A stretch of 64,000 bases of DNA from Finegoldia sp. Lineage in GTDB: Bacteria; Bacillota; Clostridia; Tissierellales; Peptoniphilaceae. Both the position numbers and the translations under genes were made by a program. Below are positions 1,828 through 10,279 of this stretch, in pieces. The stretch spans positions 139,758-203,757 of the forward strand of contig JAXFOR010000005.1 in NCBI GenBank assembly GCA_034180305.1, in the 5' to 3' direction. A model generated the notes under the pieces. The model saw nothing but the letters and a program-made list of their open reading frames with translations, searched no databases and was not told the DNA's origin. Numbering within the stretch: the first letter of the stretch is position 1; each line of letters starts with the position of its first letter.

Positions 1828-1856
1828 TTGACATTGAAAAAATAAAAATATATAAT
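1828..1856 (+). promoter_or_regulatory. Consensus sigma-A promoter for the yneA-like gene
   Basis: TTGACA (1828-1833), 17 bp spacer, TATAAT (1851-1856). Confidence 0.85.
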
Positions 1857-1909: not shown

Positions 1910-2210
1910 ATGAAAATTTATAATAAAAAAAGATTTTTTACTTTTATATTTTTACTTGTAAGTTTAATCACTTTGCTTGTAATAAAAATATTTGATGTAG
2001 ATACGTATGGGGCAAAAGAAAGAGAAAAGTTAGAATTTCAATATTATATAGTAGAAAATGGTGATAGCTTGTTGTCTATAAGCTAAGGAATATAAAAAAG
2101 AAGGCATGACTACTCCTGAATATACTTCTTGTATTAAGGAATATAATAGCCTGACAAATGATAATATTATTCATGATGGGGAGCTAATTTTACTTCCTCA
2201 ATTTAATTAA
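1910..2210 (+). pseudogene. yneA: YneA-like LysM cell-division inhibitor, frameshifted (or sequencing error)
   Basis: N-terminal TM, then LysM start YIVENGDSLLSI with stop at 2084-2086; LysM continues in the +1 frame (AKEYKKEG...IIHDGELILLPQFN*); divergent from lexA. Confidence 0.75.
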
Positions 2211-2224
2211 AAGAACATATAATC

Positions 2225-2268
2225 GAACATAAAGGAAGTTTAAATGAGTCTAAACTTCCTTTATGTTC
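2225..2268. terminator. Bidirectional hairpin between convergent yneA and xerC
   Basis: 18-bp perfect stem GAACATAAAGGAAGTTTA / TAAACTTCCTTTATGTTC, 8-nt loop, T-run after on +. Confidence 0.75.
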
Positions 2269-3232
2269 TTTTTTTTATCTTATTTAAGGGGTTGCTATCC
2301 ACCGCTTTCTTCAATGATTTATTATTTATGTGAGTATATATTTGAGTAGTGGCAACTGACTCGTGACCTAATATTTCCTGTAAAACTTTAATGTCGACCC
2401 CTCCGTATTGGTACATAAGAGTTGCTGAAGTATGTCTAAGCTTATGGACACTATAAATGGAAGTATCAAAGCCTGCAAGTTCTAAATAGTGGTCAATCCT
2501 ATATTGGATTGCTCTGTTACTCATCCTGTTTTTCTTTTTGCTGACGAATAGGGCAGGGCTATCAATTTTTGGCCTATACATAAGGTAATCTGCTATAGAA
2601 GCCAGGCAAGCCTCATTTAAATATATAGTCCTTTCTTTATCGCCTTTACCTATAACTGTTAGGGTATCTTCTTTGATATGGGGGATATCTATATTGCTTA
2701 GTTCTGATAATCTCATTCCGCAGTTTAGAAAAAGAGTAACAATACAATAATCTCGACTCCTTAAAAAGTCACTTTCTTCCTCTAAGATAGTATCTAAGAG
2801 CTTTTCACATTCCTCAAGAGTCAAATAAACCGGTTGCCTTGAATTTTTCTTAGGAGTTTCTAATTCCTCAGCAGGATTTTTTATATCAAGCTTTCTAATA
2901 TTAATAAGGTACTTAAAGAAGGTTTTTATGCTTGACGTTTTTCTGGCCCTGGTAATATTGGAGTCGTTTTGTGTCCTATCTAAAAAGGACATAAAGGAGT
3001 GGAGGTCTACAAGATCCACGTCTTCATAAAAACCCGAATCGACCTTAGATATATCAATATTGTTTTTTAAATCCTCAAAGCTTTCGATTTTGATTTTATC
3101 CTTTCTAGCCTTCAAGTATTTAGTAAGTAGGTTGACATCATATCCATACTCTTTAATTGTGTTAGGGGATCTTCCTTTTATAGTTTCTAAATATTCCATA
3201 AAGTCAATTATCACATCCGGATAGGAATTCAT
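2261..3232 (-). CDS. xerC: XerC-like tyrosine recombinase
   Basis: Catalytic R (GMRLSEL), K (GKGDK), HxxR (HKLRH), H (LGHES), Y (TQIYTH); N-terminal SAM-like domain. Confidence 0.88.
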   Translation of the reverse strand: MNSYPDVIIDFMEYLETIKGRSPNTIKEYGYDVNLLTKYLKARKDKIKIESFEDLKNNIDISKVDSGFYEDVDLVDLHSFMSFLDRTQNDSNITRARKTSSIKTFFKYLINIRKLDIKNPAEELETPKKNSRQPVYLTLEECEKLLDTILEEESDFLRSRDYCIVTLFLNCGMRLSELSNIDIPHIKEDTLTVIGKGDKERTIYLNEACLASIADYLMYRPKIDSPALFVSKKKNRMSNRAIQYRIDHYLELAGFDTSIYSVHKLRHTSATLMYQYGGVDIKVLQEILGHESVATTQIYTHINNKSLKKAVDSNPLNKIKKRT

Positions 3233-3321
3233 AATAAGCTCCTTAAATAAAAAGTATCAGCATAATACAAAAGAAGAGTGAGAGTATTTTAATATTATAT
3301 GATACTTTTTAGAAATTTTTA

Positions 3322-3353
3322 TAATGTCACAAAATAAGTATTTTGTGACATTA
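3322..3353. other. Perfect inverted repeat, candidate dif-like Xer recombination/binding site
   Basis: TAATGTCACAAAATA-AG-TATTTTGTGACATTA; core 3324-3351 reads ATGTCACAAAA-TAAGTA-TTTTGTGACAT (11-6-11). Confidence 0.55.
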
Positions 3354-3355
3354 AT

Positions 3356-3384
3356 ATTATAGCAATAAATAAGCCGATATTCAA
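3356..3384 (-). promoter_or_regulatory. Sigma-A promoter for xerC
   Basis: Minus strand TTGAAT-17bp-TATAAT with extended TG. Confidence 0.6.
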
Positions 3385-7115: not shown

Positions 7116-7655
7116 TTATATATTATCTAAATCCAATACTTGTATGTTTTTGTAGATATAATCTACTAATGACATTATTGTTAAAATTACAGACACATAA
7201 TAAAGACCTTGTCCTAAAATAAGCGGAATATTTAAGGCACTTCTTGCAAAAAGCAAAAGGATTATAGCTATAAATTGAGTCATAGTCTTTGCCTTACCCC
7301 ATATACTCGCAGCTAAAGTTACTCCATTAGAAGCAGCTAAAATTCTAAATCCACTTATAGTAAGCTCCCTTGCAACAATTATAACAACGCTCCAAGCCGG
7401 TACAAAACCTATTTCAATAAGCATTATTAAAGATGAGCATGAAAGCATCTTATCTGCAAGAGGATCTACAAATTTACCGAAGGTTGTTACAAGATTTCTG
7501 CTTCTGGCCAGATGACCATCTAAGAAATCTGTAATAGAAGCTATTATAAATATAAGAGCAGGTACTACACTTGTTTCAGGTAAAAAAATAAAACATACAA
7601 TAAATACCGGAATCATAAATACCCTAAATAAAGTTAGCTTATTTGCTATATTCAT
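7116..7655 (-). CDS. pgsA: CDP-diacylglycerol--glycerol-3-phosphate phosphatidyltransferase
   Basis: [22 protein letters not shown]-alcohol motif. Confidence 0.96.
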
Positions 7656-9843
7656 TTGATTTTCCCCTTTCTAATAGGTCTTTTGATGCAAGTATTTTTC
7701 TAGGCTTGCTTCCCTCACTAGGACCTATGATATTTCTTTCTTCCATTTGATCAATTATCCTGCCTGCCCTTGCATATCCTATCTTTAACTTTCTTTGTAA
7801 AAGAGATATAGATGCAGACCCTTCAGTCAAGATTATTTCTAAAGCTTCATTAAATAGTGAATCAGTATCATCATCTATGATATCTGCAGCCTGGTCAATT
7901 TTGTCAATATCTTCTATAATTTCTTCATCATATTCACTTTCATTTTTAGAAATTAAATATTCAACCACTGCTTCAACCTCTTCATCGGATACAAAAGCTC
8001 CCTGAATTCTCTTAGGCTTTAAGGAACTTGACGGATAGAACAACATATCTCCCTTACCTATTAACTTTTCAGCTCCGGATTGGTCCAGGATAGTCCTTGA
8101 ATCTATCTGGCTACTAACTGCAAAGGAAATTCTAGAAGGTATATTTGCCTTTATAGTTCCTGTTATTACATCTACAGTAGGCCTTTGGGTAGCTATTATA
8201 AGGTGAATCCCGCAAGCTCTCGCCATTTGAGCCAATCTGCAGATCGAATCTTCTACATCATTTGCACTAACCATCATCAAGTCACTCAATTCATCTATTA
8301 TTATTACAATATAAGATAGCTTTTCCAAGCTGTTATCCTCATTTTTTCTGTTATAGGAATTTATATCCCTGACGTGATTTTTAGAGAAAATTTCATACCT
8401 TCTTTCCATTTCCCTAACGGCCCAGTTAAGAGCAGAACTTGCCTTTTGAGGATCTGTTACAACCGGGATGGCAAGATGAGGAATATTATTGTAAATTGAT
8501 AACTCGACAACTTTCGGATCTATAAGAATTAGCTTTACGTCATCAGGAGATGATTTATAAATGATGCTCATTATAAGCGTGTTTATGCAAACAGACTTAC
8601 CGCTTCCTGTAGCTCCGGCAATAAGCAAGTGAGGCATCTTATCTATAGAAGAAATTATGCACTTTCCTGAAATATCTTTTCCAAGAGCCATAGGCATTTT
8701 TGATTTTTCTTTTTGAAATTCTTCAGATACAAACATTTCTTTTAAAGATACTGAATTTTTAACTTCATTTTCTATTTCCAAGCCTATTACAGATTTGCCC
8801 GGAATAGGAGCTTGAATTCTTATCCCACTGCTGGCTAAGGCTAGGGATAGGTCATCTGCTAAGTTTACTATCTTAGATACTTTTACTCCTGCATTTGGTT
8901 CTAATTCAAAGCAAGTTACAGTAGGTCCCTTGTCTATCTGAACGACCTTGGCATCTATAGAAAATTCTTTAAGGGTCTGTTCAATTTTTTCAGCTTTTTG
9001 AATAATTACAGAGTCATCCATATCAACTTGTTCATAATATTTTAATAAATCAAGAGGAGGAAACTTGTAATTATTATTATCCGAAGCATTTTTATTTTCT
9101 TCTAGGGTAAGCTGTTCTATATCTTTATAATCTACTTTTTTATACTCATTTAATTTAGGCTTTCCATAATTTTCTATATCTTCTTTAATATTAGACCTTT
9201 TGTCTTTTTTAATAGAGAAACTTTCCCTATTTTCATCAAATTTATTTACCCTGTTCTCTACTACTTTTTCCCTAGTTTTAGTAGAAGCTTTTAAGTCTTT
9301 TGATTTTTTGCCTACTTTATTGTACAGAGAATATACAAGTTCTACTATATTTTTGTCAAATATAAGAGGCACAATTCCTACCAAACAAACTATTGCTAAT
9401 ACATTTATTCCCATTATTCCAATTATTGAATTTAACAAAGAAGATAGAATTGCCCCTAAGACCCCTATACCTGTATAATTATTTGCAAGTTGGTTATTTA
9501 GACTTATTCTTCCTCTCATATCTAAGTTAGGATAAGCTTTTAAATTTTGTCTACTAAAAATGAGAGTAAAGAAAATCCCGGACAAAATACAAAGATTAAT
9601 GGTCTTTTTATTATCTATCCTATCTATATAAGTTGATAATAAGCCAATAAGTGCCAGAGATAGATATATATAGGATAGTTGTCCGAAGCTGTTAAAAAAT
9701 ATATTTTTTGTGATAATTCCTATTATTCCGGTTTCCTTAGATATTATAAAAACAAGAGATAAGATTATGAGTAAAATTATGAGCGGTTTTTTGCTAAAAT
9801 TATTTTTTCTTTTCTTAGATTTCTTATTATTCTTCTTTGGCAT
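7639..9843 (-). CDS. ftsK: DNA translocase FtsK/SpoIIIE (start uncertain)
   Basis: N-terminal TMs, [21 protein letters not shown], gamma domain [14 protein letters not shown]. Confidence 0.96.
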
Positions 9844-9847
9844 GACA

Positions 9848-10279
9848 CTAATAGCCGGAATGACCAAATCCTCCATCGTTTCTTTCTGTAGAATCCAAAG
9901 ATTCAACTTCTATAAATTCTACATTTTCATATTTAGAAAGTATCATTTGTGCGATCCTGTCGCCTGATCTTATGGTATAGTCTTCATTTGAAAGATTTAT
10001 AATAGGAAGTTTTAACTCTCCCCTGTAATCACTATCTATAGTCCCTACACAATTTACAAGAGTTATTCCATGCTTTATACTTAAACCGCTTCTCGGTCTT
10101 ATCTGCACTTCATAACCATCAGGTATAGAAATATAAAGACCTGTAGGAATTATCTTCCTTTCTAAAGGCTTTAAATTTATATCTGAATCTAAGTAAGCCA
10201 TTAAATCCATCCCACTTGAGCCTTCTGTAGCATAAGTAGGTAGTGGATTATTTGATTTGTTTATAATATTTACTTTCAT
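9848..10279 (-). CDS. dut: dUTPase
   Basis: [24 protein letters not shown]. Confidence 0.97.

Follow-up and report, generated by a model that had tools for sequence, protein, structure and literature searches.

The 64,000-nucleotide stretch of Finegoldia sp. DNA analysed here (the window; contig JAXFOR010000005.1, positions 139,758–203,757) contains a symmetric palindrome at window positions 3324–3351, directly upstream of a gene encoding a tyrosine recombinase. This palindrome is, with high probability, the dif site of the chromosome, lying at the replication terminus, where chromosome dimers would be resolved by the single adjacent recombinase. Sequence comparisons make it a well-supported candidate for a single-recombinase dif system like XerS, XerA and XerL, with a recombinase clade of its own. 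A one-enzyme dif-type site at the terminus had been proposed in an earlier note made from this DNA alone, and the proposal is strengthened by conservation of the site, its position relative to the GC skew, the absence of XerD from the family, co-variation of protein and DNA, and the insertion of a phage at such a site in a relative. Dimer resolution, control by FtsK, direction set by the spacer and autorepression are functions that we infer for this system.

Symmetric site and adjacent recombinase

The 28-mer at 3324–3351, to which no strand is assigned, is a perfect inverted repeat of an 11-bp arm, a 6-bp non-palindromic spacer and a second 11-bp arm. As described previously from the sequence, the perfect arms can be extended to 15 bp around a 2-nucleotide centre (3322–3353). 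A search for other copies in the 1.42-Mb assembly (83% complete) found the arm pair once, with none other within four mismatches. The site thus has the general dif/Xer layout: non-coding, about 28 bp long, with two 11-bp arms and a 6-bp centre, and one per chromosome. No variant or joint was found at the site in contigs of four DNA runs from one study. Because perfect 11-6-11 repeats are not rare and promoter-like matches occur at shuffle level (below), weight is placed on conservation and position and not on the palindrome alone.

The recombinase gene (2261–3232, minus strand) encodes 323 amino acids and was assigned to a clostridial Xer clade from its sequence, family scans and an alignment. 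Its start lies 92 bp from the site, close to the 90 bp given before, and it is the sole PF00589 match on the contig, in line with its description as the only tyrosine recombinase. The catalytic residues R174, K196, H263, R266, H290 and Y299 are invariant in 20 aligned relatives, such that the R-K-H-R-H-Y set of a dif/Xer tyrosine recombinase is intact. A ribosome-binding site, AAGGAG, was read from the sequence at 3239–3244 (minus strand). A predicted sigma-A promoter of the gene occupies 3356–3384 (minus strand; −35 element at 3384–3379, extended −10 element at 3361–3356). The earlier note had placed a promoter here, and the motif is indeed present, TTGAAT-17-TG-TATAAT matching at 10 of 12 positions; promoter-like matches in the region are, however, no more frequent than in shuffled sequence (9 versus 10.0 ± 3.9), which calls for caution. 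The motif ends 4 nucleotides before the first arm, a gap that recurs in relatives of the same genus, and the predicted transcription start would fall inside that arm. The recombinase leader is about 60 bp longer than in same-genus relatives, and it includes another inverted repeat (3252–3311), which is imperfect and has arms of about 20 bp.

Terminus position, conservation and co-variation

On the 234-kb contig, cumulative GC skew reaches its maximum at window position 1084, which locates the skew inversion 2.2 kb from the site. The curve stays near a plateau to about 2700, and together with the converging genes it defines a replication-terminus zone at 1084–2260 (no strand). Coding bases are directed towards the site for 91% of those on the left and 97% of those on the right; polarised octamers are dominated by coding bias. 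The terminus position expected of a dif/Xer site was also found in 18 of 20 genomes with long contigs, in which the skew peak lies within 5.3 kb of the site, and in seven of the 20 it lies within 100 bp. Further genomes mostly show agreement between site and peak within a few kilobases. In three genomes in which the site is not within about 10 kb of the gene, the distances from site to gene are 14, 22 and 66 kb, and the corresponding distances from site to skew peak are 27, 44 and 34 bp. The 14- and 66-kb sites were found by pattern search, and the 22-kb site was found once more sequence had been fetched. Because the site tracks the skew switch even when the gene is 14–66 kb away, it is not merely an operator of that gene.

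The core pattern of the site was found in 30 of 31 genomes of the order, compared with 4 of 31 for a reversed control. The remaining genome carries a variant 6 bp past the stop codon, so that a version is present in 31 of 31, and motif-free inspection revealed the same palindrome in most of 30 orthologue upstream regions. At the level of the order, the site lies upstream of the gene in 25 genomes, downstream in three, about 5 kb away in two and on another contig in one. Second copies of the core pattern, seen in seven of these genomes, have at most 8 of 11 arm pairs and resemble chance matches. In the class, a profile built from 20 orthologues matched 110 of 121 genomes, and among the latter we counted 89 strong full-family matches. 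Among 86 non-redundant loci, 64 have a site: within 260 bp upstream in 47, just downstream in four and farther away in 13. These sites comprise 33 distinct arm 11-mers; the arms pair perfectly in 44 of the 64, and in 57 they pair at 10 or more of the 11 positions. Palindromic spacers occur in none of the 64, with about seven expected by a hand calculation from position frequencies that ignores kinship. The suggested alignment of xerC upstream regions across Clostridia accordingly finds paired 11-bp arms widely, although their sequences differ considerably between genomes; the idea of a lineage-specific system gives way to one that is class-wide. A phylum-wide search, the pattern of which excluded the canonical site and the counts of which are not used, showed a related palindrome in other families.

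Hybrid sites, whose two arms belong one to each of the two commonest types, occur in two relatives within the order (L037:1496 and L066:1496) and are possibly intermediates in a change of specificity. More distant Xer proteins, 27–33% identical, also lie near symmetric 11-6-11 sites (L357:6974, L358:1011, L359:7220, L352:7554 and L355:3857), and at L357 and L359 the site is within 200 bp of the local skew peak. One-enzyme modules may therefore extend more widely than the clostridial clade.

Co-variation of protein and DNA points to the recombinase as the probable cognate of the site. Omission of 15 proteins without a site and three with mixed arms from a set of 89 left 71 for comparison. R240 occurs with C at arm base 5 in 38 of these, and another residue occurs with another base in 30, leaving three exceptions. 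By mutual information with arm base 5, column 240 ranks first, at 0.84 bits (mean 0.05, standard deviation 0.075), and six independent pairs on well-supported branches gave a median p of 0.03 (range 0.03–0.125). In the alignment, residue 240 falls at the central position of the key dif-binding motif (XRX in XerC, RQX in XerD), and it stands at the start of a predicted helix, the predicted DNA-reading helix. The rule linking residue and base held at six of six plasmid-record sites outside the set from which it was derived, two of which records may be pieces of chromosome.

These plasmid or chromid records carry their own recombinase of the clostridial clade together with their own symmetric site (L360, L361, L362, L365, L366 and L367); they include pSOL1, records from Clostridium butyricum, C. 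beijerinckii and Ruminococcus albus, and two others. Three of nine plasmid-record copies, and the second copy in genome G001, had no site that we could find beside them, and the second copy in G381 had none that was convincing.

The palindrome could alternatively be an RNA hairpin, acting as terminator of the PHP gene or as a 5′ stabiliser of the recombinase message, its position at the terminus being a by-product of gene order. It folds stably (z of −3.8 to −7.1 for the stretches folded), lies 68–95 nucleotides past the PHP stop codon and is found just after the recombinase gene in three relatives. It has, however, no U-tract, consistent with the previous statement that it is not a typical terminator and with its absence from the list produced by a terminator scan, and in relatives of the same genus a distinct terminator with a U-tail precedes the promoter. 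Neither the length of the spacer nor the register varies, the bases of the site change in step with a DNA-reading residue, and the site is found at the skew switch even where the neighbouring genes differ. We regard an RNA hairpin as extremely improbable.

Number of enzymes and function of the site

XerD was sought with TIGR02225 in 59 genomes and scored over the cut-off in 24. It was not found in any of 16 genomes of the family, in which the best matches had the strength of the recombinase itself; the 15 further family genomes without it are 92–100% complete, some in one to three contigs. A single enzyme is therefore well supported in this organism on the basis of gene content. The one-enzyme reading needs correction elsewhere, because XerD has been retained in many other Clostridia that carry this kind of symmetric site, and in those the argument for one enzyme would draw on site symmetry and co-variation. 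The surroundings of 30 clostridial xerD genes yielded no core-type palindrome, and no other dif candidate was found in the present genome.

A two-enzyme XerC/XerD site, with xerD missing only through the 83% completeness of the assembly, would fit the incompleteness itself, the presence of XerD in the 24 genomes with such a site and the unequal arms in two order-level relatives (G026 and G027). Against this stand the 15 more complete family genomes without XerD, and the fact that neither arm is the XerD-arm sequence of the Firmicutes dif. Moreover, the two arms change jointly, in step with a single residue of a single protein, and a XerD-arm pattern searched over the 59 genomes was about as frequent as its reversed control among the matches listed. 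The dissimilar arms and the xerD gene that characterize XerC/XerD systems are thus both lacking here, and we consider a two-enzyme site very unlikely.

Four XerD-positive genomes of family f142 have, just beyond the recombinase gene, a symmetric site composed of two XerD-type arms (L173:7283, L174:5924, L176:5797 and L301:5354). In genome G386 this XerD-arm site, and not the upstream site, lies 3 bp from the skew peak; a XerD-negative member of the same family has no XerD-arm palindrome in the stretch fetched. These palindromes resemble the XDS sites described for Bacillus subtilis, which are dif-like XerD sites that unload Smc-ScpAB (PMC11840125, PMC11894783).

The XDS precedent, together with the presence of smc in the genome, raises the alternative that the palindrome is a non-recombining landing pad at the terminus that serves autorepression, SMC unloading or both, with dimers resolved elsewhere. 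Promoter overlap also speaks for this alternative. Using sigma-A and sigma-H consensus motifs, we found for 25 of the 47 upstream sites a promoter-like element whose end lies no more than 14 bp away (sigma-A-like in 14, sigma-H-like in 12), compared with nine matches in 534 background windows (seven sigma-A-like and two sigma-H-like). A non-recombining role does not, however, account for invariant catalytic residues, a single copy that is at the skew switch independently of the gene, a spacer that is never palindromic, a site that is the crossover point for a phage in a relative, or the lack of another dif candidate in this genome. It is an improbable explanation, although operator and SMC roles may exist as additional, not sole, functions of a dif site.

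The promoter overlap fits autorepression by the recombinase, as would the predicted promoter in the window. The proposal in the earlier note that the site sits on the recombinase promoter thus holds as a prediction here but not as a general rule, since 47 of the 64 sites are within 260 bp upstream. Because relatives keep the site downstream of the gene or far from it, autorepression would be at most secondary and dispensable. For XerS, autorepression has been proposed but not shown.

If the palindrome is a one-enzyme dif site, the two identical arms would each be bound by one recombinase monomer, and base pair 5 of the arm is predicted to be read by R240. Two sites on a chromosome dimer would pair in a tetramer, with strand exchange across the 6-bp spacer. 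Because identical arms cannot give direction, the asymmetry of the spacer would set it. By analogy with XerS, the likely trigger of the reaction at division would be translocation by FtsK. The bound recombinase would likely damp its own expression as a secondary role, because the site covers the predicted transcription start. An ftsK/spoIIIE translocase gene (7639–9906, minus strand), identified by domain scan, starts 4.3 kb from the site, in agreement with the previous estimate of 4 kb, and encodes alpha, motor and gamma domains; its genomic context makes its product a likely activator of the recombinase.

Insertion of a phage was observed at a site of this family in a relative. Locus L270 contains a 6.9-kb element, a filamentous prophage with Rep and Zot-like morphogenesis genes, that has a half site at one end and a full site at the other; the two sites share an arm and the spacer, and the element lies beside the host recombinase gene. 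No recombinase was found inside the element among the open reading frames (ORFs) scanned. Among ten metagenome contigs with the left flank of L270, two are empty, six are occupied by the phage and two are too short; the empty contigs run straight through the full site into the recombinase gene. From its sequence, this arrangement is the pattern of a mobile element that exploits Xer, and it points to crossover at a site of this family rather than at the site in the window. In this one example, the prophage parts the host recombinase gene from its predicted promoter (L270:1064–1120 and 7992–8048). The prophage ends in a new TTGACT-17-TATAAT element, a predicted promoter that would restore expression of the recombinase.

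Sites of two arm types were also found on 15 and 34 viral contigs, respectively, most of them without the recombinase in the stretch fetched. One family of 33–58-kb viral contigs has a single internal copy of the site and no recombinase of the clade nearby, and the same is true of small tailed phages with SPP1-type portal genes (L242, L245–L251, L253–L256; L261, L264, L274, L281 and L289). The internal site may be an attachment site or a resolver of the phage's own dimers.

Several observations weigh against a one-enzyme dif site at the terminus. The skew peak in this contig is 2.2 kb away and not at the site itself, and third-codon skew was unable to place the switch between 1084 and 3324. 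Of the two long-contig genomes outside the 5.3-kb range, one has its site 11 kb from the peak and the other has no clear skew; in G012, G017 and G376 the fetched stretch shows no switch close to the site. At 22 of the 86 class loci no site was present inside the fetched stretch, although some were later found farther off. The class-level motif derives from the earliest sites identified, with inner bases fixed by the pattern, so that their invariance is partly by construction. On its own, moreover, the palindrome is weak evidence, since the genome contains 27 perfect 11-6-11 repeats, the 14 longest of which are mostly terminator-like. The phage insertion comes from a relative with a recombinase that is 41% identical, and the 24 XerD-positive genomes mean that one enzyme cannot be inferred class-wide from gene absence.

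Relation to known systems and neighbouring features

The recombinase scores below the family cut-offs for XerC (206.5 versus 335 bits), XerS (125.8 versus 267) and XerA (204.8 versus 220), and also below that for XerD. Its closest named relatives, 67–68% identical, are Finegoldia proteins called 'XerC'. In an unrooted tree of 40 proteins, the clostridial proteins form one group (support 99), and a branch (SH-aLRT 94, not starred) separates this group, XerS and XerS-like proteins from XerC and XerD. The placement on the XerS side recurs in a larger FastTree run; the trees were built without XerH and XerL. Orthology with XerC was considered and rejected, because a clade with Firmicutes XerC is itself rejected (p-AU 3e-5) and the score lies below the XerC cut-off. 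The gene, which was previously called xerC and is annotated so, thus encodes no XerC orthologue; by sequence, the clade appears to lie nearest XerS.

XerS/difSL of streptococci and lactococci comprises one recombinase and a terminus site that is usually just upstream of the gene (PMC1914069, PMC2965235, PMC5357621). The present system shares the single recombinase, the terminus site and the position of the site directly upstream of the gene, which holds here and in 25 of the 31 genomes of the order, and the difSL-bearing locus of G468 can be read in the same AAAA-N6-TTTT register. By contrast, the recombinase has 323 rather than 356 amino acids, falls below the XerS cut-off and belongs to a separate clade (support 99). 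The arms are perfect here, whereas difSL is 31 bp long with imperfect, unequal arms, and here the site covers the predicted transcription start; sites of the clade can also lie far from the gene. A site of the clade is used by a phage, whereas none had been reported at difSL in the accessible text from 2010.

XerL/dif of Legionellales is a distinct, order-restricted clade in which the arms are perfect, the gene is distant from the site and an integrating mobile element uses the site (PMC9765430). A single recombinase, uninterrupted inverted arms, terminus position, use by mobile elements and plasmid-borne copies are all shared with it; the order restriction and the distant gene set it apart, a distinction that is drawn from the published description of XerL. 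Archaeal XerA/dif likewise has a single recombinase and a near-symmetric 11-6-11 site (PMC2958812), and XerA is the best solved-structure match by sequence and fold. The present protein differs in falling below the XerA cut-off, in being bacterial and in having ftsK nearby. Its key motif is N-R-A, compared with the XKX given for XerA, although K occurs in other members of the clade. XerH is a further established single-recombinase dif system (PMC5357621).

With XerC/XerD-dif of Firmicutes and Escherichia coli (PMC3025954), the site shares the 28-bp 11-6-11 layout at the skew switch. The arm matches the XerC-side arm of the Lactobacillus casei site at 7 of 11 positions (9 of 11 for G381), and the XRX motif of the recombinase is XerC-like. 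It differs in its two identical arms and in the lack of a XerD arm and, within the family, of XerD. The previous statement that the sequence does not resemble known dif sites is thus wrong in part, as the register and part of the arm do resemble them. Like XDS, the site is a dif-like Xer-type site in the terminus region, but there is one site rather than several, with another protein and no XerD. No description of the clostridial site family was found in the literature searched, which largely lacked subscription papers, nor in the accessible parts of PMC9239249, PMC10061712 and PMC8138268.

These findings suggest a broader but tentative proposal, which, taken jointly, we consider a little less probable than its negation. 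Most Clostridia would have dropped XerC/XerD dif for their own XerS-related one-enzyme module. A surviving XerD would have been freed for another job at the terminus, for example, SMC unloading at symmetric XerD-arm sites. The module would also be carried on plasmids, and filamentous phages that lack an integrase and supply a substitute promoter would exploit it; the arms and the DNA-reading helix would co-evolve by a simple code. If true, this would provide a natural set of Cre/lox-like pairs with different specificities. The clostridial site and its recombinase would in themselves add to XerS, XerH, XerA and XerL a further one-enzyme system, in about three quarters of the class genomes sampled. 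A 2011 survey by Kono lists no dif for Clostridium perfringens or C. beijerinckii and four predictions for C. botulinum that are 137–175 degrees from the skew switch (PMC3025954). The survey likely missed or misplaced the Clostridium site, a conclusion drawn from the survey entries and not from the chromosomes of those three species. A defined site and enzyme family make clostridial chromosome-dimer resolution directly testable and raise the question of what XerD does in the Clostridia that keep it. They also touch on two proposals in the literature, namely that sites used by one enzyme make poor targets for mobile elements, and that insertion is blocked when dif is placed in the promoter. In harmless industrial Clostridia, the site could be used as a neutral integration point.

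The gene order around the site is ynbB-like, lexA, LysM-like, recombinase, PHP, rny, recA, pgsA and ftsK, some of these names being readings of the sequences and not results of profile scans; much the same order is found in a distant relative in the class. At the 3′ end of the recombinase gene, a terminator scan identified a hairpin that resembles a bidirectional terminator (2225–2268, no strand). A reading of their surroundings led us to reject the genome's two other tyrosine recombinases as Xer partners: one lies between ORFs read as type I restriction specificity subunits, and the other is beside a repressor-like ORF in a prophage-like setting. At L002:208–3205, a tyrosine recombinase lies between two oppositely oriented ORFs that resemble type I restriction specificity subunits, probably a specificity-shuffling locus; this recombinase passes the archaeal XerA cut-off, and automatic naming could mislead. 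Opposite lexA, a LysM/yneA-like gene (1910–2210, plus strand) is split by a frameshift near 2080, a place that contigs of two runs from the same study cover without difference. It may be a pseudogene of an SOS division inhibitor, the name being taken from gene order, as Pfam matched neither piece. A perfect TTGACA-17-TATAAT promoter is present at 1828–1856 (plus strand), between lexA and the yneA-like gene.
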